Positions 2,042 through 13,002 of a DNA stretch of 13,019 bases are shown piece after piece. Numbering within the stretch: position 1 is the first letter of the stretch; the number at the start of each line of letters is the position of its first letter. Location: the NCBI GenBank assembly GCA_031425655.1, contig JANPJS010000323.1:1-13019 (forward strand), read 5' to 3'. The translations under genes and the position numbers were made by a program. Below the pieces are notes generated by a model. It had not been told where the DNA came from. It worked only from the letters and a program-made list of their open reading frames with translations, and searched no databases. The stretch is from Abditibacteriaceae bacterium (GTDB lineage: Bacteria > Armatimonadota > Abditibacteriia > Abditibacteriales > Abditibacteriaceae).

Positions 2042-3280
2042 ATGTCCAAACTTCGCTTTTCTCTCGCTTTTGCTGCTCTTTCGCTCTTTCCCAGCGCCGC
2101 GCTCGCTCAATCGGGCGGCGGCGGCGCGATTGTCATTCCGCCGAGCACGCCGTCTGTGCCAACGGCGCCGACCGGGGCGCTCGCCAAATACGAGCCGAGC
2201 GGCGACCGCGTTTATCATGCGGCGAGTCTCAAAGGCACTTGGGACATTTCGCAATTGCGACAGCAGTCGCAGGAATTTCAGCGCGCGTCGGGGAAAAAGC
2301 TCGCTGTCGTGACGTGGTTCGCTTCGGCTTACGAAAACGGGCGCCTGACTTCGTGGCGCACGCAATACGTCGGGCAACTGGATCGCGTGCGGCAAATGGG
2401 TTCGCTGTCGCTGATTAAATTTTCCATTCAGGATTCCAACTTCGAGGCGACACGAAAAATCGCGCCGCTGAAACACATCGCGATGGGCGTTTACGATGCC
2501 TATTTCGAGGAAATGGCTGACACGATGCGCGATTTTGGCGCGCCGGTTTTTTTGTCCATTAATCACGAAATGAACGGCACCTGGTATCCCTTTAGCGAAG
2601 CCTATCCCGGCAGCGGCGTCACGGCGGCGGATTTCGTCGCATCGTGGAAGCGTGTTGTGGATGTATTTCGTCGCAAAGGCGCCAACAACGTGGCGTTCGT
2701 GTGGTCGCCCAATGTTCCTGATGTCGGCCCGGTGCCGTTTGCGCGCTATTATCCCGGCGACGACTATGTAGATTGGATTGGCGCCTCGTTTTATTCGGGC
2801 AATCCCGTGGAGAATTTGAGCCTGCTTTATCGCGCTTACGCCGCGAAAAAGCCATTTTTCATCACCGAATGGGCGACGGCGCCGGAGAAAAATCGTTATT
2901 ACCCCAGTTTTCCCGGCGAGGCGACGTGGGTTAAAGCGGTCATGGCTTCGCTTCAGAAAAACTATCCGCGCGTCAAGGGGATTTCGTGGTTTCAGTGGCA
3001 AAAAGACGACGGCAATTACCTTTTGCAACGCCTGCCCGACCAAGCGCAAGCCTACGCCGCCGGTGTCGCCAATCCGCGCTATCTCGAAGACGCCGGGCAA
3101 TTGCTCACTTTAGCGCCAGCGCCCGCAACGCCGCGCACGCAAGTCGTGCCGCGCGAAGTCGTGCTGAATGAGGCGCGTCCTGCGGAAGTTGTAAAAACCG
3201 AAACGATCAAATCCGAAGCACCTGCCGCTATTCCTGCCCGCGCGCCGCTCAAGTTGCAACTCCTGCCACGTGGCCCGTAA
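2042..3280 (+). CDS. Secreted glycoside hydrolase family 26 protein (beta-mannanase/glucanase-like), about 412 aa
   Basis: Signal peptide MSKLRFSLAFAALSLFPSAALA-Q followed by a Gly/Pro linker. GH26 motifs: HEMNGTWYP (acid/base Glu), FVWSPN, YYPGDDYVDWIG, KPFFITEW (nucleophile Glu), YPRVKGISWF. GAGG lies 9 nt upstream of the ATG at 2042. Confidence 0.9.
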   Translation: MSKLRFSLAFAALSLFPSAALAQSGGGGAIVIPPSTPSVPTAPTGALAKYEPSGDRVYHAASLKGTWDISQLRQQSQEFQRASGKKLAVVTWFASAYENGRLTSWRTQYVGQLDRVRQMGSLSLIKFSIQDSNFEATRKIAPLKHIAMGVYDAYFEEMADTMRDFGAPVFLSINHEMNGTWYPFSEAYPGSGVTAADFVASWKRVVDVFRRKGANNVAFVWSPNVPDVGPVPFARYYPGDDYVDWIGASFYSGNPVENLSLLYRAYAAKKPFFITEWATAPEKNRYYPSFPGEATWVKAVMASLQKNYPRVKGISWFQWQKDDGNYLLQRLPDQAQAYAAGVANPRYLEDAGQLLTLAPAPATPRTQVVPREVVLNEARPAEVVKTETIKSEAPAAIPARAPLKLQLLPRGP

Positions 3281-3287
3281 AAATTCC

Positions 3288-3337
3288 GAAACGTAGAGGC
3301 GCCTAGAAGAAATGTTCTTCTCGGCGCCTCTGTTTCT
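3288..3337. terminator. Hairpin/terminator between the convergent GH26 and OPT-like genes
   Basis: AGAGGCGCC-t-AGAAGAA (3295-3311), loop ATG, TTCTTCT-c-GGCGCCTCT (3315-3331), extended by GAAAC/GTTTC. Confidence 0.8.
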
Positions 3338-3352
3338 CAGCGGTGAATTCTT

Positions 3353-5398
3353 CTAAAAGGGCAGGCGTGAAACGCTCTTGGAAAGCAGAGCGAGCGAGAC
3401 GGCGCCCATGCCGATGAGGCCCATGCCGCAATAATAGCCTGCGACTAAAACCGGGGCATAAGAGCGCCAGTTTTCGACGCCGTAGCGTTTGGCGAAGTAA
3501 TAGTGGCCCAGCATCGCGCCGACGAACTGCAAAATGATGAACGCCGGCTGCGCGTGCGTGCCGCTGATGAGACCGTAGAAAAACAGGCTGGAAATGCCGG
3601 AGAAGTGAATGACTATGTAAGAAATGACCGCAATCAGGCCGCCGGCGCCGATGTATTCGGGCTTGATGCTTTTCAGCAAAAAGTTGGTTTCCGGGTCGCG
3701 GTTAGCAGTCATCCACAGCGCGCTCATCTGCGCGTGGGCGGGCCAAAACTTCGAGGCGTAAGGATAATTCGAGGACGGAATCGGCGCCAAACGCCAGATA
3801 AAGCTCCAGAACACAAACGAGCAAATCAGCATAATCGGCAGCATCATCATTTCGACTTTGAGAATCGAAACGAATTTGGTGCGCGTTAGCTCGACGGTGC
3901 GGAAGTGCTGCGCCATGCCGCCGTAATCGCCTAAAGGAATCGGCGCGAACCAGATGGCCGTGCTTTTATCGCCCGTCAGCACGAAGGACGCTTCCCGCAC
4001 GTAAGGAATCGAGAGATGCTGGCCCGCCATGCCCGCCATGCGCGCGTTAATGTAGGAAAATATCGGCGTCCAGATGAAGCCGAAGAACAGCAAAATCATC
4101 AGCGGAAACGCGGGCACCAAAACGCGGCACATGATGACGTAAGCCAATGTGCCGACAACCCACAGCCCCAGAGCAAACCAAATTGGCACGTCACCGCGTC
4201 CCGGAGGCGGCGTTAAGCGCGAGGCGCCACCTTCTTTGCGGTTTTTCTGCGCTTTCAAAACAGCCCCAACTACACTGCCGATACCGATAACCGCCACGAT
4301 AATCGAAGTGCCGATATTGAAAGAAATCCAGAAGTCCACGTTGTTGACAATCTGGGTTTGAATCAAGTCCACGCCCGGCGTCCAGGTGTGCAGAATTTTG
4401 TAATTATAGAGAATCGGCGGCGCGATAATATGAGCGGCGATAGCCGCGATAAACGAGCCGACCACAACCGGAAGCGGCAACACGAAGCCGACCAAAATCT
4501 GGCCGATGTCGGTGCCTAACCCGGAAAGTGCGGCGGGCAAAATTTTCTGCGTGTTTGGTGTCAGGTCAATGAACGGGTTGGAAACAATGACAATCGGCTG
4601 CGAAAAAACCAGTCCGGTAACGGCGGGCAGCAGGATGTAAATCGTGCCCCAACCGACGCCGAGCATGGCGCCAATCGAGAAGATGCGCCAGCGCCAGCCT
4701 TCTTTTTGCGCCGACGATTCGGCCAAAGCTGTTGCGCCTTCCGCGGCAATCGGCGCGAGGGGAAACGGCAAGCGCTCCACGTCGGACGTGATGCGAAACA
4801 TCACGTAGCCCAATCCCCACGAGTTCATGCGCCCGAAGACCTGATAAAACATCAGCAGGCCGATGGGCAGCAGCCAGTCTTTGTGGAAAAAGGTGCGCGC
4901 CGAAAGCGCCTCGGAAGTCGGCGGCGGCGCGACCCACGACGGCACGCCGCGCGTAATGCCCAGCGCCTGCGAAACCGGCGAGTTCACCACGTATTGCGTC
5001 ATGATGAGCGTGGCGAAGGCGCCGCCGGTTAAAGCCAGCGCGCCAACTTGAGAAGTCAGCGCCGAACCGACGTAATAAAGCAGATAGATTTCCTGCTTCT
5101 TGAGGGTTTGATAAGAGCGGCGCGACACCTCCATGAAGAGGATGATCGTCACCCACTCGGCAGCCGGCCCCATGCCCTGCCCGGCGATCAAGCTGAGATA
5201 AATGGCGCCCGGCATCATAATGAGGCCGATAAACAGCGCGCCGATCACGGTTTTCCAACTAAAACCGTCAATGAATTCTTCGGAGTCGCCGGCTACTACG
5301 TCATCATCGGGCGAGCCGCCGAGCGACGGGTCCACATTCAGTGGCCCGATGGGCTTTTCTTCTGGCGCCCGGTTGGAAGCGTCGGATTGCAATGCCAT
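3353..5398 (-). CDS. OPT/YSL-superfamily-like polytopic membrane transporter (peptide transporter-like), 681 aa
   Basis: Many hydrophobic helices (roughly 14-17 by eye). N-terminal FSWKTVIGALFIGLIMMPGAIYLSLIAG...LKKQE and ERLPFPLAPIAAEGATAL resemble the OPT 'LTxRA...Y..LK.G', 'QE' and 'LPFP.G.A.A' motifs. AAGGA RBS upstream of the ATG. Confidence 0.75.
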   Translation of the reverse strand: MALQSDASNRAPEEKPIGPLNVDPSLGGSPDDDVVAGDSEEFIDGFSWKTVIGALFIGLIMMPGAIYLSLIAGQGMGPAAEWVTIILFMEVSRRSYQTLKKQEIYLLYYVGSALTSQVGALALTGGAFATLIMTQYVVNSPVSQALGITRGVPSWVAPPPTSEALSARTFFHKDWLLPIGLLMFYQVFGRMNSWGLGYVMFRITSDVERLPFPLAPIAAEGATALAESSAQKEGWRWRIFSIGAMLGVGWGTIYILLPAVTGLVFSQPIVIVSNPFIDLTPNTQKILPAALSGLGTDIGQILVGFVLPLPVVVGSFIAAIAAHIIAPPILYNYKILHTWTPGVDLIQTQIVNNVDFWISFNIGTSIIVAVIGIGSVVGAVLKAQKNRKEGGASRLTPPPGRGDVPIWFALGLWVVGTLAYVIMCRVLVPAFPLMILLFFGFIWTPIFSYINARMAGMAGQHLSIPYVREASFVLTGDKSTAIWFAPIPLGDYGGMAQHFRTVELTRTKFVSILKVEMMMLPIMLICSFVFWSFIWRLAPIPSSNYPYASKFWPAHAQMSALWMTANRDPETNFLLKSIKPEYIGAGGLIAVISYIVIHFSGISSLFFYGLISGTHAQPAFIILQFVGAMLGHYYFAKRYGVENWRSYAPVLVAGYYCGMGLIGMGAVSLALLSKSVSRLPF

Positions 5399-5442
5399 GC
5401 TGCGTCCTTAATGCCTTCGGGCCGTTTGGGCCACAATTAGAA

Positions 5443-8400
5443 TTAAATGGTGCTGCTTCCCACGACGGTGCCGGGAGCTTCCAGCGGCGCGATTTGACCC
5501 GTCACATGAGCGCGTCCGGTCAGAATATATTCCTGCTGAGTTTCGCGCGGAATGGTGCGCCACAGCAAAAGCTGCTTGCGCAAATCGCTGATAAAACCGC
5601 GATTGACACGCTGCCAAGCCGCGATTTCGCCGCTTTGACGCGCTAATCGCAGTTGCAATTCGTAAAGTCCCGGTTCCGCCGAGGGCAGCAAAACGATGTC
5701 GCTGTCCTGCGAAACGCCCATATCGAAAGGTGCCAGCCAGACGCGCATGGAGATTCGATAAACCTCGGTGTCCGGCGGCGCGTTAATGCCCGACAAGTTC
5801 AGCAACACCGTTTCCGGCGGCGCGGCTTCTTCGGCTTTGCCGTTCGTCGCGTGGCCGTTCGATTCGCTCTTCGTCGCCGCAGCTTTGGCAGCTTTAGCAG
5901 CTGCGACTTCCGCAGCTTTGGCGGCAGCTTTAGCGGCAGCTTTGGCGGCGATTTTAGCCTCTTTGGCGGTCGGTGGAGGCATATCTTCGGGCATCAAAAC
6001 GCCTTCGTTCAGCACTTCTACGGCCTCGCGCAAACTGAGCGAGGTGAAATGCACTTTATCTGTGTAGAACTTGCCGACCGAGGTGTCGGTGTGCGTATTA
6101 AAGAAGTCGCAGAGGAACTGCGCCACGCCCAGCGGCTGCTGGCCCGAAACCGTGAAGGGGAATTGAAAACGCCAGATGTCGCCGATTGGCGCGCTCATTT
6201 TCCAGCGGCGCTCGATGTCCGGCTGCGACATCCGCGAGGCCGCCCACGCCGGATAAAGCGTCGAAAGCAGCACCGTCAGCATGACAATCAGCGTTGCAAT
6301 GACCGCCGACGACGACGAATAGTTGAGCGTGATGCCCGGCAGCAGATTATAAACCGTGAGAACTTTGGCCACAGCCTGCGCCACAAGGTAGCCGGAAATC
6401 GAGCCGAGCACAGCATAAACCACCGCCTCGGCGATAAACAACGCGGCGACGTGAATCGGCGCCAATCCGACCGACGAATAAATGCCGATTTCCCGCGTGC
6501 GCTCGTAAACCGAACCCAGCATCGTATTGGCGATAATCAACGCCGCGATGAGAATCGGAATCACAAGGGATGCGAAGCCTTCGTAACCGGCACTTTCGAC
6601 CGAAGAATAGAGTTTTGCAACTAAGGCTCCGTCTTTATCCTCGTCGGTGCCGAAGATGCCCAGAGCAGCACGGCCCATCAAATCTTTCAGTTCTTTCTGG
6701 CCTTTTTCGTTTTCGGAAAAGCTGGCGGCAAGGGAGCGCGTCGAGCCTCCCAAATCAAGCACGGTGCGATACGGCAAAATCAGCATGGCGTTGGCGTCCA
6801 TGTGCTGATAACGCTGCACCTGAACTTCCTCGCCCTTCTGGCCAGACAGCGAATTCTGTTGCTGCGCTTGCTTGTTTTGGTCGTTGGAATAGTCCACGGG
6901 CGTGAACTCTTCGCCATCAATATCATAAAGCGGCTCGGCTTTGGCTTCGCGCGCTGCTTCGTCGGGATACCATTTGCTGTCGTCAAAAACGCCGATGATT
7001 TGCAATTGCTGACCAGCGACCTGCACCCATTTTCCGACCGCATTTTCGGGAGTGAGTGCCAACGGCGGGCCGGTGTTTTCGAGCGTTGCGTCGGCGGGCG
7101 CCACGGTGCCGGCTTTCTGTTTGGGCGCTTGCAACTGCGAAAGCGGCATCAGACACACGTCGCGGCGGTTGTCTTTTTGAAACCAGTTGCCGGCGACGAG
7201 GGTTTTCGTGATCGGCGAGCCGAGTTTTCCAAGTTCCGCTTCTTCGGGCGTGAGTCCGAGCAGGGCCGGAGCGTGGAAAAACTTGGCCGGATTTTCGACG
7301 TTGCTGACGCGAAGCTGCAACGCTTCGCCTTGATCACGCGATAAATACCACGCACGCCGCGCCACGACATCGAAGCTCTGCGTGAACTCGTTGGCCATCG
7401 AGTTCACCGCCGCCTGCTGCATCGCGCCCCAGTCGGGTTGGCGCACCAAAACGCCCTGATATTGCGGCGTATGATCGCCCCACGTTTTGGCGAAGTTGCT
7501 GATGTTGGCCGTGACCGACGTGAACGAAAGCACGGTAAAGGTCAGCAGAACTAAGGTAACGCAAGTCAGCGCGGTGCGCGTCGGACGGCGCCGCATATTG
7601 GCGATGCCCAATCCGAACGCCGCGCCCAAAGCCGAAAGGCGTCCCACGTCGGCGAAGTGAACGCCTTGTTTCAAACGCTTGATTTCCGCCTCGAATTTGC
7701 CGGACAGGAACGACGTAACGACAACAGTCAGCGCCAGAATGATGAAGGCCAGCAAGATGATAAACGGCGTCAAAGCCAGCTCAAAGGCCGGATGCACGTA
7801 GCGAATTCCCAGAAAAATGAGGCCGAACGCCAGCGACGTGCCCATAATTTGCTTTCGCACGTCGGGGAAGCCAAAAAGCAGGCGTTCGAGGAAGAACGAA
7901 AACGGCAGCAGCAGCGCCAGATAGAAAATGATGCCTTTAAGCACGTCTTGCGAGGTCGCTTCCACATCGGGATAAGCGCGCGATTCGAGGCCGAAAGCGC
8001 GCCGCGCTGCCAGATAAAACTGGTCGTATTTCAGCGCAGCCAGTGCCTCGTCGGCTTGTGTGAGGGCGTTTTTACGGCCCGTTTCAGCCAGAGGACTGTC
8101 ATCGGGCACGCCGCTCGGCTTCATTTTGCCTTTGGCGTCAATGCCACCGCCCGCCGCTGAGTGCAAAGCGTCCACGCGCTCGTTGTTGATGCCGAAACGC
8201 TTTAAAAGACCGATGCGCATCTGATCCAGCGCCCACAAATCGCGCGCGGTTTGATACGCGACGTGGATGACCGGATTCGGCATCTGGTCGTCTTCGGGCA
8301 CGAAAACGCCGTTGCCTTCGGGATAAACCTCTTTTTGCGCCGTGGTAGGCGCCGGCTTTCCGGTGTCGGCGGCCAACGCTTCCAATTCATGCTGTGCGCG

Positions 8401-11046
8401 CGGCTGCGTATGCACGACAACCAAGCGTTTTCCCAGAAGACCCGCCGCCATGATGAGTTTAAAGGTGGCGTTGGGCCGCGAATAAACGATGCCAATCGGC
8501 TCTTTCCAAGCCGCGCCGCCGCCCGGCGACATCGGCGCCATAAACCCGTATTCGACCGGCCCGGCGTCGGTTGACGCATCGAGAACCGTCATTTCGCTGA
8601 GGACGGAAAAGTAGCGCTGATCTAATGTGTCGTGCAGCGCCGTGCCCCGGCATTCAAAGCAAATCGTCGAGGCGTCAACGGCCAATTCCCCCGTCGCTTC
8701 GTTTTTGTAGTTGAGAGCCGGGTTGGTCTTCTTGAACTTCGGCGAAAAGCGTCCGCGTTCGGAACCCATGTCGGGCGCGAAAATCACGCGACCGGCGCTG
8801 TTGACCGAGAAGTTTTCGATTTCGGCGTCGGGTGTGCCGCCGCCTTTGGGGTCGCCGACGCGCGGGCCGACGAAGACGAATTCGGCCAATGGCGGTGTGC
8901 CTCTGGAAAACTGAGCGCGCTCGATAAAGGCGCCGCGCACGCCCGAATACGATTTATAATCCCCGCTGCGGTTGAGAATATGGCCCAGCGCCATCGTGCC
9001 TTTGAGGCTGCGCTGGTCGTCTAATCGCTGCGCTTCGCGTTCTTTTCTGCGGTCGAGTTTTTCCTGTTCCAACTTTGCTTTCAGCGGGCTGCTGCCCTGC
9101 AAAGCGGCGATCTCGGTTCGCATCCTCTGTTCTTCCGTCGCCGTGATGATCGGCTTCGACAGCGGCATATTTTCATCGGGAATCGGGGTGTCGGGCAGAA
9201 ACGACGAACCCATTTTCACGTTGCGATAAATCGCGCGTCCTACGGCGTAGCCGAAATTGAGCGAAAACAACGAGGAGTCCGGCAGCAAATCGAAGCCGAC
9301 GACCTTGTCTTTGGTCGCCTTTTCGTCGGGCAAGGGGCCGAACGCTTTGTTCATCACCCATGTGATGGTGCCGACTTGGCGCGCGAGGTTTTTGGTGTCT
9401 ACAAACTGCGGCAAATCGAAGGGCGTATCTTGCAGATTGCGCGCGTCGTTGGCGGTCACGAACGAGATGCCGGGCTTTTGCGCCATCGTCGCGGCCTCGC
9501 TGTCCATCGCCACCAGCGACGGCAGATAACTGCGCCACGAACGGCCATCTTTGCCGGTCACGCCGTTCACGTAAAAAGTTTCCGGCTGGACTTTGCGCAC
9601 GGCGGCTTCGTCTTCGACCCAATCGTCGAGTTGCTTGGCGAAATCCGCGAACTGGTTCAGCAAAATGTTCTCGGAGCCGGCGCCCATCTGGTTGTAAAAA
9701 ACCGATTTGGCGAACAAGCCGACGGTTGCGGTGCGCGAGGTTAAATCGAGGCCGATAAAGCCTTTATAAAACGCCGGCTCTTTGATGTCTTTGTTGTCTT
9801 TATCTTTTTTGGTCGGGCTTGCGCTGCCCGGAATTTCCTTGCCTTTAGCGTCTTTTTTCGCAGCCCTTTCGAGGAAGTGCTGCGCCAGAAAATTGCGAAC
9901 GCCCGCCAGCGCGATGTGATGCGCGCCGTTGGCCACGAAAAGCAAGGAATAGCGCTGCGGCTTAGCTCCGAAGGTGCGCGCAATTTCGAGCAGCGCGGCC
10001 ATGTTGCCGGCGGGTTCGGCGCCCGGCGCCAAATCGGGCGCGATGGACATCGAATCGAAATACGCGTCTATGACGAGCGTGTCGCCCGGCTTTTTGGCGA
10101 GCGCGGCATCGGTGCCCGGCACTTCGCCCAAAATGTTGCGGCCTTGCACGCGCTCCCATTTCACCAGAGAAAGCAGCGAAACCGCAGCCGGTTTTTGCGC
10201 CGCGCGCTGTGCGGGCGTGATAGGCTGGACAAGTTTTCCACCCGCCGCGATCAACTTTTTGTAGTCTGCCTCGGTGCCAACTCCGGCTACGTTTGCAAGC
10301 GGCAACCCCAACGTGCCCATCATGGCGTTCACTGTGGCTTTCGGTGCGTAAAAGCGGGGGAATTCGACGGGCAGATTCGAGAACTTGGTTTCAGCCTCGT
10401 TGCGCGCCGCAGGCGTGTCAGGTTCGAGGAAAATGACGGCCCGCGCGCCCAAATCGGCGGCGACCGTCCAGTTCATCGCGGAATCGAAGTCGAGCGCAAC
10501 GATGGAATTTTTGACGACTAAACCGTTGTAATCCGCAGGCCGTCCGGCGCCGCCGTAAATGAGCTGGCCGTCCAGCCCTTTTTCGGGCGTGCAGGGCGGA
10601 ATTACGCCATTGGGATACAGCGGCAAGAGCGGCATGGTGCGCCCGCCGATGGTGATCTGGCACTTTTTAGTAACCGGCACCGTGACGGGAAACTCTTCGT
10701 GGCGCACGTTTTTCAAGCCGAGCGCGCGAAAGCGATTTTCGATATGCTCTGCGGCTTTGATGTAATCCGCAGTGCCGGGCACGCGCGATTTAAACGCGGT
10801 CAGCGCCATGATGTCGGCTTTGATGCGGGCTTCAACGGCGGGGTCGAACGGCACGCCCTGCGCGAAGTTGGCAGTGTAAGCGACGGGCTTTTTGGTCGGA
10901 GCAGGTGCGGCGGAAGATTTAGCAGCCGGAGCAGGCGCCTGGGCGCTGGCTACGTTCGCATGATTGAGTGAGCGGCCTAAAAAGACCGTCACGCAAAGCA
11001 GTAAAAACAACGGCAAAAAGATAAAGCGGCGGGAGCCTGCCTTCAT
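5443..11046 (-). CDS. Giant multidomain membrane protein: signal peptide/anchor, PA domain, degenerate M28 peptidase-like domain, long extracytoplasmic region, TM block, MacB-like periplasmic domain and FtsX-type permease domain; 1867 aa
   Basis: N-terminal hydrophobic helix. M28-like SRVPGT..AAEHIENRFRALGL and NILGEVPG...LVIDAYFDS..APGAE..AALLEIAR..SLLFVANG. PA-like GQLIYGGAG..VKNSIVAL..AADLGARAVIF. MacB N-terminal motif ANMRRRPTRTALT. FtsX motif IANTMLGSVYERTREIGIYSSVGLAP..LFIAEA..LYPAWAASR. GAGG RBS at 11054-11057. Confidence 0.85.
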   Translation of the reverse strand: MKAGSRRFIFLPLFLLLCVTVFLGRSLNHANVASAQAPAPAAKSSAAPAPTKKPVAYTANFAQGVPFDPAVEARIKADIMALTAFKSRVPGTADYIKAAEHIENRFRALGLKNVRHEEFPVTVPVTKKCQITIGGRTMPLLPLYPNGVIPPCTPEKGLDGQLIYGGAGRPADYNGLVVKNSIVALDFDSAMNWTVAADLGARAVIFLEPDTPAARNEAETKFSNLPVEFPRFYAPKATVNAMMGTLGLPLANVAGVGTEADYKKLIAAGGKLVQPITPAQRAAQKPAAVSLLSLVKWERVQGRNILGEVPGTDAALAKKPGDTLVIDAYFDSMSIAPDLAPGAEPAGNMAALLEIARTFGAKPQRYSLLFVANGAHHIALAGVRNFLAQHFLERAAKKDAKGKEIPGSASPTKKDKDNKDIKEPAFYKGFIGLDLTSRTATVGLFAKSVFYNQMGAGSENILLNQFADFAKQLDDWVEDEAAVRKVQPETFYVNGVTGKDGRSWRSYLPSLVAMDSEAATMAQKPGISFVTANDARNLQDTPFDLPQFVDTKNLARQVGTITWVMNKAFGPLPDEKATKDKVVGFDLLPDSSLFSLNFGYAVGRAIYRNVKMGSSFLPDTPIPDENMPLSKPIITATEEQRMRTEIAALQGSSPLKAKLEQEKLDRRKEREAQRLDDQRSLKGTMALGHILNRSGDYKSYSGVRGAFIERAQFSRGTPPLAEFVFVGPRVGDPKGGGTPDAEIENFSVNSAGRVIFAPDMGSERGRFSPKFKKTNPALNYKNEATGELAVDASTICFECRGTALHDTLDQRYFSVLSEMTVLDASTDAGPVEYGFMAPMSPGGGAAWKEPIGIVYSRPNATFKLIMAAGLLGKRLVVVHTQPRAQHELEALAADTGKPAPTTAQKEVYPEGNGVFVPEDDQMPNPVIHVAYQTARDLWALDQMRIGLLKRFGINNERVDALHSAAGGGIDAKGKMKPSGVPDDSPLAETGRKNALTQADEALAALKYDQFYLAARRAFGLESRAYPDVEATSQDVLKGIIFYLALLLPFSFFLERLLFGFPDVRKQIMGTSLAFGLIFLGIRYVHPAFELALTPFIILLAFIILALTVVVTSFLSGKFEAEIKRLKQGVHFADVGRLSALGAAFGLGIANMRRRPTRTALTCVTLVLLTFTVLSFTSVTANISNFAKTWGDHTPQYQGVLVRQPDWGAMQQAAVNSMANEFTQSFDVVARRAWYLSRDQGEALQLRVSNVENPAKFFHAPALLGLTPEEAELGKLGSPITKTLVAGNWFQKDNRRDVCLMPLSQLQAPKQKAGTVAPADATLENTGPPLALTPENAVGKWVQVAGQQLQIIGVFDDSKWYPDEAAREAKAEPLYDIDGEEFTPVDYSNDQNKQAQQQNSLSGQKGEEVQVQRYQHMDANAMLILPYRTVLDLGGSTRSLAASFSENEKGQKELKDLMGRAALGIFGTDEDKDGALVAKLYSSVESAGYEGFASLVIPILIAALIIANTMLGSVYERTREIGIYSSVGLAPIHVAALFIAEAVVYAVLGSISGYLVAQAVAKVLTVYNLLPGITLNYSSSSAVIATLIVMLTVLLSTLYPAWAASRMSQPDIERRWKMSAPIGDIWRFQFPFTVSGQQPLGVAQFLCDFFNTHTDTSVGKFYTDKVHFTSLSLREAVEVLNEGVLMPEDMPPPTAKEAKIAAKAAAKAAAKAAEVAAAKAAKAAATKSESNGHATNGKAEEAAPPETVLLNLSGINAPPDTEVYRISMRVWLAPFDMGVSQDSDIVLLPSAEPGLYELQLRLARQSGEIAAWQRVNRGFISDLRKQLLLWRTIPRETQQEYILTGRAHVTGQIAPLEAPGTVVGSSTI
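5872..5968 (-). repeat. Ala/Lys low-complexity coding repeat (AKEAKIAAKAAAKAAAKAAEVAAAKAAKAAA) inside the giant permease
   Basis: Imperfect tandem GCAGCTTT(G/A)GC units on the + strand, in frame with the minus-strand CDS. Confidence 0.8.
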
Positions 11047-11108: not shown

Positions 11109-11365
11109 TTAATGCAGCAGGGCAAACGCATACGACACAAAATAGGGTTTTGGGTGTTGGGTAGTGGGTGTTGGGTAGTGGGTGTTGGGTAGTGGGTGCG
11201 GACATGATCGTCTCGGTTCAGAATCCACAATCTAATGCAGGTTCGCAGGAGTTGTTGTTGGATAGCGGGGCTTTCACATTCTGAACAACAGCTCCTGCAA
11301 AGAGACGCTAACACCCAAAACCCAAAACCCTATTTGTGTCGTATGCGTTTGCCCTGCTTAATGCA
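11109..11365. mobile_element. MITE (non-autonomous element, about 240 bp, 11117/11118-11356/11357) with ISAs1-like termini and target-site duplication
   Basis: Inverted arms GCAGGGCAAACGCATACGACACAAA(A)TAGGGTTTTGGGT(G/T)TTGGGT at 11117-11162 and 11313-11357, differing by one bulge and one mismatch. Flanked by direct repeat TTAATGCA at 11109-11116 and 11358-11365. No transposase inside. Confidence 0.8.
11144..11198 (+). repeat. G-rich heptamer tandem array: (TGGGTGT TGGGTAG)x3 plus flanking partial units
   Basis: GGG tracts start at 11145, 11152, 11159, 11166, 11173, 11180, 11187 and 11194, an exact 7-nt period. Confidence 0.95.
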
Positions 11366-11408
11366 GTCTTCGCGCCCATCACCATTTCACCGCAAGCGAT
11401 TCGGGCAT

Positions 11409-11436
11409 TTGTTGCCTCACGCCTTTCGGTTAGAAT
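11409..11436 (+). promoter_or_regulatory. Putative sigma-70 promoter (TTGTTG-16 nt-TAGAAT) for the membrane protein/pilT operon
   Basis: TAGAAT at 11431-11436 ends 7 nt before the GTG at 11444; weak -35 TTGTTG at 11409-11414. Confidence 0.4.
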
Positions 11437-11443
11437 AATTGCC

Positions 11444-11914
11444 GTGCTGCCCGCATCCCCGACTTCCTCGCCGCCTCAAAACGCCAATCCTGCCGCCGAC
11501 CGTTTGCTGACCGGTTTAATCGTCGCTTCGATGCTCTACACGCTTCTGCTCGGCTGGGGCGTGCTGGCGAACGTGGTGCCGTTTCAATCGGCTTATTTGC
11601 TGATGGCTTTGCCTTGTCTGGCCCCGATTATTTGGTATGGCTACGGATTCGTAAAGGTCAACGAAGCCACACAAGATTTTGGACTGCTTTTATCGGCGCT
11701 GGGCTGGAGCTTCATCGCCATTTCGCTGCTGGTGCGGCACACAGCCCTCAACGCCGATTTACTGGCCTATCAACAGGGCGCGCAGATTGATAATCTGGGC
11801 GAGTCCACAGCCGCGAAGATTTGCACTTTAATCGGCCTGCTTTGCATCGCCGTCGGGGCAATCATGGCGTTTCAAGCGTGGTCGCGCGAAATGCGGCGCA
11901 ATTCGAGATTTTAG
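11444..11914 (+). CDS. Hypothetical membrane protein, about 4 TM helices, about 156 aa
   Basis: Four hydrophobic segments (LLTGLIVASMLYTLLLGWGVL; AYLLMALPCLAPIIWYGYGF; FGLLLSALGWSFIAISLLV; ICTLIGLLCIAVGAIMAF) and a basic C-terminal tail. Stop is 11 nt before pilT. The start (GTG 11444) is inferred. Confidence 0.7.
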   Translation: MLPASPTSSPPQNANPAADRLLTGLIVASMLYTLLLGWGVLANVVPFQSAYLLMALPCLAPIIWYGYGFVKVNEATQDFGLLLSALGWSFIAISLLVRHTALNADLLAYQQGAQIDNLGESTAAKICTLIGLLCIAVGAIMAFQAWSREMRRNSRF

Positions 11915-11925
11915 AAGGTTTCATC

Positions 11926-13002
11926 ATGGCGACAATAGACGTGGACGGCCTGCTCAAATTCGCATCCGAACAAAACGTGTCCGACGTGTTCTTCAAGGAA
12001 GGCGCGCCACCGGTTTTGCGTGTCAACGGCAGTATTCGCAAGCTCGATTTCGCGCCGCTGACGGCTGAAGACGTGGAAGGCGTGGCGCAGCACATCATGC
12101 CGCCCAAGCGTTGGGAAGAGTTTCTCGAACATCCCGATCACGACTGCGCTTACGTCATTCCCGGCATCGCGCGATTTCGCGTCAATGTTTATCGCCAGCG
12201 CGGCTCGGTAGCGATGTGCCTTCGCATCGTGCAGCTTAAAATCCGCACGTTTCAAGACCTCGGCCTGCCCGAAATCATCGCCGACTTAACGCGCCACAAA
12301 GATGGCTTAGTGCTGGTCACCGGGCCGACCGGTTCGGGCAAATCCACCACTTTGGCCGCGATGATTGACCTTTATAATCAGGAAAAGCGCGGCCACATCG
12401 TCACCATCGAAGACCCGATTGAATATGTGCATCCCGACAAAGGCTGCATCGTTTCGCAGCGCGAAGTCGGCATGGATACCGAAAAATTCGGCGATGCTTT
12501 GCGCGCTGCGCTGCGTGAAGCGCCCGACTTGATTCTGGTCGGAGAGTTGCGCGATCAGGAAACGATGGGCATCTGTTTGCAAGCGGCGGAAACCGGTCAC
12601 CTTGTGTTTTCCACGCTGCACACCGCGTCCGCCGCCGAATCGCTCGAACGCATTCTTTCGATGTTCCAGCCGCACGAAAAAGCCCTGGTGCAGCAACGCT
12701 TAGCCAAAACCCTGCGCGGCATTTTGTCGCAAAAGCTGGTGCCGACTATTGACGGCAAAGGCCGTCGCTGCGCCGTCGAAATCCTCAACGTCTCGCCGAC
12801 CGTCGCGCAATATCTGGAAGAAGGCCGCAGCGGCGCGATTTACACGGCCATCAAAGAAGGCGGCGCGCAGTGGAAAATGCAAACCATGAACATGGCGCTG
12901 GATGCGTATTACAAAGAAGGCGTGATTTCCGAGGAAGTCGCTTTGGAAAATGCCGGTTTGCGCTCCGAACTGCGCCAAATGCTACGCCGAACGACAGAAT
13001 GA
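11926..13002 (+). CDS. pilT: PilT/PilU-family type IV pilus retraction ATPase, 358 aa
   Basis: N-terminal SDVFFKEGAPPVLRVNG and RFRVNVYRQRG. Walker A GPTGSGKST, Asp box TIEDPIE, QREVGMDT, ALREAPD, Walker B LILVGE, His box TGHLVFSTLH, MQTMN. AGAAGG RBS upstream of the ATG at 11926. Confidence 0.93.
   Translation: MATIDVDGLLKFASEQNVSDVFFKEGAPPVLRVNGSIRKLDFAPLTAEDVEGVAQHIMPPKRWEEFLEHPDHDCAYVIPGIARFRVNVYRQRGSVAMCLRIVQLKIRTFQDLGLPEIIADLTRHKDGLVLVTGPTGSGKSTTLAAMIDLYNQEKRGHIVTIEDPIEYVHPDKGCIVSQREVGMDTEKFGDALRAALREAPDLILVGELRDQETMGICLQAAETGHLVFSTLHTASAAESLERILSMFQPHEKALVQQRLAKTLRGILSQKLVPTIDGKGRRCAVEILNVSPTVAQYLEEGRSGAIYTAIKEGGAQWKMQTMNMALDAYYKEGVISEEVALENAGLRSELRQMLRRTTE

Follow-up and report, generated by a model that had tools for sequence, protein, structure and literature searches.

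A type VII ABC-like gene set with a pseudo-peptidase ectodomain and OPT-fold membrane partners: a possible shared motor for exchangeable subunits in Armatimonadota and other phyla

Introduction

Type VII ABC systems such as LolCDE, MacAB-TolC, FtsEX-EnvC and YbbAP-TesA are built from FtsX-type permeases and an LolD-like ATPase. Type VII systems are described as typically acting through a partner that defines their function, by mechanotransmission without a translocation path (PMC12646458). The permeases LolC and LolE form an asymmetric pair, and in YbbAP-TesA the motor is paired with a hydrolase fold.

The OPT/YSL transporters are represented by barley YS1 (PDB 7WSR/7WST), in which D446, D490 and D494 are the proton-coupling aspartates. 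YS1 is a proton-driven elevator transporter whose protomers dimerise via a scaffold domain (PMC9691689). A different gene arrangement is known from group I and group II ECF transporters, which have dedicated operons in some lineages, and one energizing module with scattered subunits in others (PMC4245157). The transferrin receptor, nicalin and a GPI transamidase subunit each have an M28 fold that lacks the canonical zinc set and is tethered to a membrane complex. The canonical M28 set consists of the dizinc ligands His, Asp, Glu, Asp and His, together with a catalytic Glu.

Here, we describe a locus that has likenesses to all of these systems. It lies in a 13,019-nt stretch of DNA from an Abditibacteriaceae genome, which is referred to as the window. 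The original prediction for this locus was a two-gene unit joining a peptidase-like ectodomain and an FtsX-type permease to an OPT-like carrier. Based on genes and predicted folds, P0001 and P0002 are proposed to be the fixed membrane core of a seven-component system that serves as a shared ATP-driven motor for exchangeable OPT-fold subunits, a reading to which we give slightly less than an even chance.

Layout of the locus

The coordinates confirm two real open reading frames, P0001 ("GIANT") and P0002, separated by a short gap, with a divergent gap of 289 nt upstream of P0001 and a convergent GH26 gene that ends at 3280 (Table 1). A convergent terminator had also been predicted between the GH26 gene and P0002, but in a terminator scan the gap at 3281-3352 is empty, and the scan's only site in this area is a weak minus-strand one inside the end of P0002. 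The source genome, which is 97% complete, has one copy of P0001 and one of P0002. The nearest named homologues are from Abditibacteriota, and the cultured Abditibacterium utsteinense has homologues of both P0001 and P0002.

Other genes in the window were also noted. A divergent 192-aa membrane protein and a PilT-family ATPase (11336-13002) are outside the conserved gene set. Between the end of a sigma-70 gene and the GH26 gene, a stretch of lower GC content (581-1937, GC 47-50%) holds a LEM-3-like GIY-YIG nuclease gene and a family-less 201-aa gene, and looks like a small acquired island.

Table 1. Features of the P0001/P0002 locus and of partner genes on other contigs (C) of the source genome
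Feature	Coordinates	Strand	Basis
P0001 "GIANT", 1867 aa	5443-11046	-	ORF call
P0001 N-terminal hydrophobic segment, aa 3-28, signal peptide or anchor	10963-11040	-	Hydropathy
P0001 PA/M28 aminopeptidase fold, aa ~66-590	9277-10851	-	Model and profile
P0001 beta-rich domains and helical stalk, aa ~591-1033, confidently modelled	7948-9276	-	Model
P0001 extra three-helix membrane unit, aa ~1034-1120, highly conserved	7687-7947	-	Hydropathy and model
P0001 MacB/FtsX module, aa ~1140-1607: TM1, periplasmic domain, TM2-4	6226-7629	-	Pfam and hydropathy
P0001 conserved C-terminal domain, probably cytoplasmic, with low-complexity Ala/Lys insert	5446-6225	-	
P0001-P0002 intergenic gap, 44 nt	5399-5442	n/a	
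P0002, 681 aa, YS1/OPT-fold membrane protein, full-length DUF6785 homologue	3353-5398	-	ORF call and model
LolD-like ATPase	C95:4108-4911		412 bits, next match 277
Small FtsX	C91:6283-6924		E 5e-82
PqqD-like protein	C91:6936-7331		Profile match
X330	C45:70964-72082		Profile match

P0001 joins a peptidase-like fold to an FtsX-type permease

Hydropathy analysis of P0001 indicates an N-terminal segment, helices at ~1034-1120, one helix at 1157-1183 and three at 1486-1604. The AF2 model of residues 55-1125 has a pLDDT of 87.9 and a pTM of 0.87. The top structural matches of the ectodomain are PA-M28 aminopeptidases, the transferrin receptor and GCPII (Foldseek E 3e-19), and the Aeromonas aminopeptidase aligns well with the model (VIA Z 25.6, rmsd 3.0, 261 aligned), in agreement with the predicted PA/M28-like ectodomain. 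A GPI-transamidase chain also matches the ectodomain (Z 17.3), and the P0001 family profile matches nicalin (E 5e-7). Active aminopeptidases outscore both of these proteins, and the matches point to no special kinship with any one of the inactive M28 ectodomains; the P0001 ectodomain differs from them in being fused to an ABC permease, in bacteria and, from one partial locus, in archaea.

The M28 residues were located in 86 GIANT sequences by motif register, not by superposition. The position of the first zinc-ligand His is occupied by Y or F in 83 of the 86, and Asp is not among the six commonest residues at the position of the first ligand Asp. All 86 sequences have His in place of the catalytic Glu, and F, H, Y, G or C in place of the ligand Glu; D replaces the last ligand His in 81. 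The second ligand Asp is retained in every sequence (86/86). D331, H376 and D434 never vary, and E517 and D540 hardly do. This conservation pattern suggests that the ectodomain is a re-tooled binding pocket rather than a peptidase. Nearly all 86 sequences have other residues in place of the canonical zinc and catalytic ones, which makes it unlikely that the ectodomain processes a peptide, as the original prediction had it.

The predicted FtsX-type permease is supported by a match to PF02687 at residues 1494-1607, scoring 57.8 bits against a cut-off of 25.5. Approximately 300 residues separate TM1 from TM2, in the position of a MacB-type periplasmic domain; PF12704 is annotated in 11 of the 120 listed homologues and has no match in P0001. 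A single full coupling-helix motif, recognized by reading the sequence, is found at residues 1515-1528 of P0001, in the last FtsX unit. Since P0001 has only one such motif, a second permease is implied. The C-terminal domain of GIANT, which is also present in an archaeal-type copy (L144), matches no Pfam family in the 37 members scanned.

P0002 has the fold of barley YS1

P0002 has no Pfam match at all and does not reach the cut-off of the OPT family (PF03169). Sequence and profile searches of P0002 against the PDB likewise gave no match, and the fold search alone succeeded. Barley YS1 is the sole fold match of the P0002 model (pLDDT 89.8; Foldseek E 4e-10, TM 0.61-0.67), with a Z of 21.1, an rmsd of 4.2, 554 aligned residues and 13% identity, whereas the next chain has a Z of 5.3. 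The match covers the whole P0002 fold, which has the core-plus-scaffold architecture of YS1, and P0002 was thus correctly predicted to be OPT-like despite lacking a Pfam match. Among 43 P0002 relatives scanned, 15 pass the OPT Pfam cut-off. Four relatives of 920-1080 aa (P0244, P0245, P0253 and P0261) have an inserted beta-propeller-type repeat or PDZ domain.

The GIANT/P0002 pair is conserved across genomes

The P0002 family is found in 209 of 251 Armatimonadota genomes, mostly in one copy, and in all 22 family relatives of the source genome. A total of 120 loci were fetched, with some genomes represented twice, leaving 101 distinct loci after the removal of three without upstream DNA. The distance from GIANT to the OPT-like gene downstream of it is at most 400 nt in 74 of these 101 loci, and at most 3 kb in 92. 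GIANT is absent upstream in the other nine, four of which have <2.3 kb of upstream DNA. On one 3.5-kb metagenome contig, GIANT is followed by the OPT-like gene with a 0-nt gap, and the OPT-like protein clusters with Bathyarchaeia records. At one locus (L015:6422-13888), GIANT and the OPT-like protein form one 2488-aa ORF with a 94-residue junction. The genes are unfused in G242, from the same genus; because the fusion is from a single locus, it may reflect a recent stop loss or an assembly error. A second candidate fusion (G315) was rejected due to a stop between the genes, and a search of proteins of 1237-3530 aa found no fusion, which is weak evidence. Together, the upstream positions, the Bathyarchaeia-like contig and the L015 fusion support the prediction that the two genes are a conserved unit.

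In Abditibacteriaceae, the pair stands alone at 13/13 loci (L002-L014). Outside Abditibacteria, the common gene order is GIANT, OPT-like, X330, PqqD-like, minimal FtsX (~205 aa) and ABC ATPase, and these six genes form one operon in most of the Armatimonadota loci examined. GIANT is far from the four-gene block in family f12, too. Several additional genes were observed near the pair. At L002-L014, the pair often has a folC-like gene beside it, identified by eye (17 loci in the cluster). A TatA-like ORF, likewise identified by eye, separates the OPT-like gene from X330 in nine clustered loci (L028, L029, L038, L069-L071, L074 and L075 among them). Chthonomonadales-type operons have one or two single-TM proteins just before X330, in a DUF1559-like cluster in most loci (L035, L062-L064, L072, L076, L077, L082-L091; L142, L143). 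The operon at L217, from Planctomycetota, encodes PqqD-like, DUF6785, a large second FtsX, ATPase, GIANT, OPT-like and a second ATPase-containing ORF.

Four partner genes are located elsewhere in the source genome

Profiles built from the operonic genes of other genomes were used to search the source genome contigs, and identified one clear orthologue per partner at three other loci (Table 1). The original prediction of a system with no ATPase holds for the P0001/P0002 locus itself and fails genome-wide; of its two options for the ATPase, "elsewhere or absent", the first is correct, with the gene on contig C95. The motifs of the C95 ATPase (Walker A/B, signature and H-switch) are intact as read from the sequence. 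Its best NCBIfam match is LolD, below the LolD equivalog cut-off. In a tree, it groups with the operon ATPases with a support of 88/89 and a long branch, in weak agreement with the profile assignment. The small FtsX matches PF02687 at 68.8 bits. X330, for which a PsbP/DcrB-like repeat is at most a guess, has no match among Pfam, NCBIfam or Atlas families. A gene for a secreted-looking protein of 590-800 aa follows X330 in the source genome (C45:68249-70663), where it has no Pfam family, and in 5/5 other Abditibacteria loci (L136-L140); it is possibly a further component.

The genes for the PqqD-like protein and small FtsX lie directly behind rnpA-yidD-yidC-jag, beside dnaA (L001, C91:6283-10811). 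In all six Abditibacteriaceae loci (L124-L129), yidC-jag is followed by PqqD-FtsX-ATPase; in the source genus, the ATPase is on a separate contig, in an ATPase-gmk-coaBC block. This arrangement raises the possibility of an assembly or export machine, in which the complex inserts, folds or checks DUF6785 or other clients and the PqqD-like protein and X330 are cytoplasmic chaperones. PqqD/RRE domains bind peptides, and nicalin and the GPI transamidase subunit, whose dead M28 folds the ectodomain resembles, are parts of protein-handling membrane complexes. A TatA-like ORF within the operon is also consistent with this model. However, three other Abditibacteria examined (L130-L132) lack the yidC linkage, so it is family-specific and probably reflects one rearrangement. 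Moreover, the higher scores of active aminopeptidases argue against a particular relationship to nicalin or the transamidase chain, and 42 of 251 Armatimonadota genomes, many of them 98-100% complete, lack the system, as would not be expected of an essential insertase. We consider an assembly or export function distinctly improbable.

The core genes are co-inherited with P0002

Co-inheritance was assessed in 80 Armatimonadota genomes, comprising 38 P0002-positive genomes (of 208 other positives) and all 42 negatives; the kin genomes among them do not count as independent. Thresholds against generic paralogues were set by us at 1e-30 for FtsX, 1e-95 for the ATPase and 1e-40 for GIANT. GIANT is present in 38/38 P0002-positive genomes and 1/42 negatives. 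None of the 42 negatives has the small FtsX, the ATPase or X330, which are found in 37, 37 and 36 of the 38 positives, respectively. The core genes are single-copy in 22/22 family relatives; in Planctomycetota and Latescibacterota, the core is often present in several copies. Profiling for co-occurring ATPase and accessory genes, as originally suggested, links P0002 to the ATPase, small FtsX, X330 and, as described below, DUF6785.

These data bear on the possibility that the two genes alone make up a unit, perhaps working without ATP, whose ectodomain supplies the OPT carrier with peptides by capturing or trimming them. While the tight pairing of the genes, the L015 fusion and the presence of a peptidase fold beside an OPT fold are consistent with such a pair, a cognate ATPase accompanies P0002 in nearly every positive genome and no negative one, the catalytic set is lost, and five further components are co-inherited. 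A peptide-trimming pair is therefore very hard to credit.

DUF6785 is a proposed seventh component

The source genome has eight DUF6785 genes on eight contigs, with 28-55% mutual identity, and no canonical OPT. The DUF6785 and P0002 families align end to end by HHalign (99.1%, E 9e-19, 583 columns), suggesting that DUF6785 has the same fold as P0002, given that the profile alignment spans 583 columns. DUF6785 is found in all 38 P0002-positive Armatimonadota genomes (1-19 matches each), in 2/42 negatives and in 0/14 control genomes. Of the two exceptions, G184 is an 80% complete genome that encodes GIANT, and G209 lacks every core gene and gives four weak DUF6785 matches. The association was also observed in 151 Planctomycetota genomes, where 26/27 P0002-positives and 0/124 negatives have DUF6785; the one DUF6785-less positive (G261) has only a distant P0002 relative. 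All 22 family relatives have 2-19 matches per genome, whereas five family-f12 genomes and G078 have a single DUF6785. DUF6785 often adjoins the core in Planctomycetota and Latescibacterota (L080, L092, L101, L104, L114, L217 and L220). Such coexistence of dedicated operons with subunits dispersed about a single module matches the gene arrangement of group I and II ECF transporters (PMC4245157). Since genomes with a single DUF6785 and genomes with multi-copy cores both exist, the pattern of one shared core is not universal.

Neighbours were compared for 20 DUF6785 loci from four genomes (12 loci from one genome), with two genes considered on each side. The test used a threshold of E 1e-6 and the control one of E 1e-10, and every match counted in the test is below 1e-10. 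Degradative CAZymes account for 11 of 80 proteins near DUF6785 and 2 of 79 at arbitrary control positions in these four genomes (Fisher p 0.017). Counted by locus, the difference is not significant (8/20 DUF6785 loci vs 2/20 control loci; Fisher p 0.065). The neighbours are GH13, GH66, GH32 (2), GH43 (2), GH2, GH51, GH78, a glucuronoyl esterase and a pectate-lyase-like protein, and two loci (L146 and L147) have the order LacI, DUF1559, DUF6785, glycoside hydrolase. DUF1559 prepilin-like genes were considered as partners and rejected, with no enrichment near DUF6785 (3/80 vs 2/79 in the control). At 12 of the 20 DUF6785 loci, none of the neighbours is a CAZyme, and several loci lie among housekeeping genes. 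At the informative loci, the neighbours give a modest hint of glycan-derived solutes over peptides.

Models for the function of the system

The folds, gene content, co-inheritance and copy numbers described above are established; the later steps of the mechanism proposed here are inferred from genomic links. An asymmetric type VII dimer would be formed from the minimal FtsX and the P0001 FtsX module, each of which has one coupling-helix motif, and two molecules of the LolD-like ATPase would drive it. P0002 would dock on P0001 as the constant OPT-fold subunit. Its partner, bound via the scaffold domains in the manner of YS1 protomers, would be one of the DUF6785 paralogues, which would set the substrate specificity. 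Powered by ATP, the periplasmic domain and stalk would move and so drive or gate the elevator stroke, leading to import of solutes that may include glycan breakdown products. The dead peptidase fold could serve as a lid or docking platform, and the PqqD-like protein and X330 may perhaps function in subunit exchange or assembly. Type VII systems typically pass no substrate across the inner membrane (PMC12646458), which argues against the motor model. In addition, solute import leaves the PqqD-like protein and X330 unexplained.

The energy source is a further difficulty for the motor model. YS1 is driven by protons (PMC9691689), and conserved acidic residues are retained in both the P0002 and DUF6785 families, so proton coupling is possible. 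The type VII module could then be a gate rather than a motor: P0002/DUF6785 dimers would be proton-driven elevators, which the type VII module and its pseudo-peptidase head open or lock upon sensing an outside cue. Allosteric regulation of partners by FtsEX-type systems (PMC12646458) provides a precedent, and a gate accounts for co-inheritance equally well. On the other hand, the loci examined show no regulator or kinase accompanying the core, and up to 19 permeases on one gate would be less economical than shared energization. We regard a gating function as unlikely.

If the motor model is correct, the system may be a new class of primary active importer, in which a type VII ABC mechanotransducer drives the elevator stroke in heterodimers with the OPT fold, made of constant P0002 and one of up to ~20 exchangeable, substrate-specific DUF6785 subunits. 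The ECF shared-module principle would then have been invented a second time, independently, and Armatimonadota, many Planctomycetota and Latescibacterota would use the system as a main route of uptake; Bathyarchaeia would have a version of it. This broader proposal is tentative, with a chance clearly short of even.

Comparison with known systems

The system shares its FtsX-type permeases and LolD-like ATPase with type VII ABC systems, its asymmetric permease pair with LolC/LolE, and the pairing of a motor with a hydrolase fold with YbbAP-TesA. It differs from type VII systems in having a fused pseudo-peptidase ectodomain of ~1000 aa, a second permease nearly without a periplasmic domain, obligate OPT-fold membrane partners and two cytoplasmic partners, and in a conserved set without an adaptor or TolC. 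By analogy with those systems, the type VII partner here would be the channel. With respect to OPT/YSL proteins, P0002 has the whole fold and DUF6785 is a full-length homologue by profile, but P0002 diverges to below the Pfam OPT cut-off, and two divergent families are co-inherited with an ABC motor here, whereas YS1 is a proton-driven homodimer. The likeness to group II ECF transporters is confined to the gene pattern of one energizing module and many scattered membrane subunits. The permeases are of type VII rather than EcfT, and the OPT-fold subunits are ~650 aa, in contrast to the small S components; the membrane parts share no homology, and the likeness is one of analogy rather than membership.

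A literature search, with most subscription journals outside its coverage, found no paper on the system and no match for DUF6785, which is a large family. The folds are known, and their combination and the pattern of one core with many subunits match no known system that we found. If the motor model is true, type VII ABC systems would gain a role beyond those known for them, the powering of uptake through a separate channel, an OPT-fold protein would be driven by ATP, and a function would be assigned to DUF6785. The genes around each DUF6785 copy could then serve as labels of its substrate, and the model would suggest, in testable form, how phyla that degrade polysaccharides and are mostly uncultured obtain their food.
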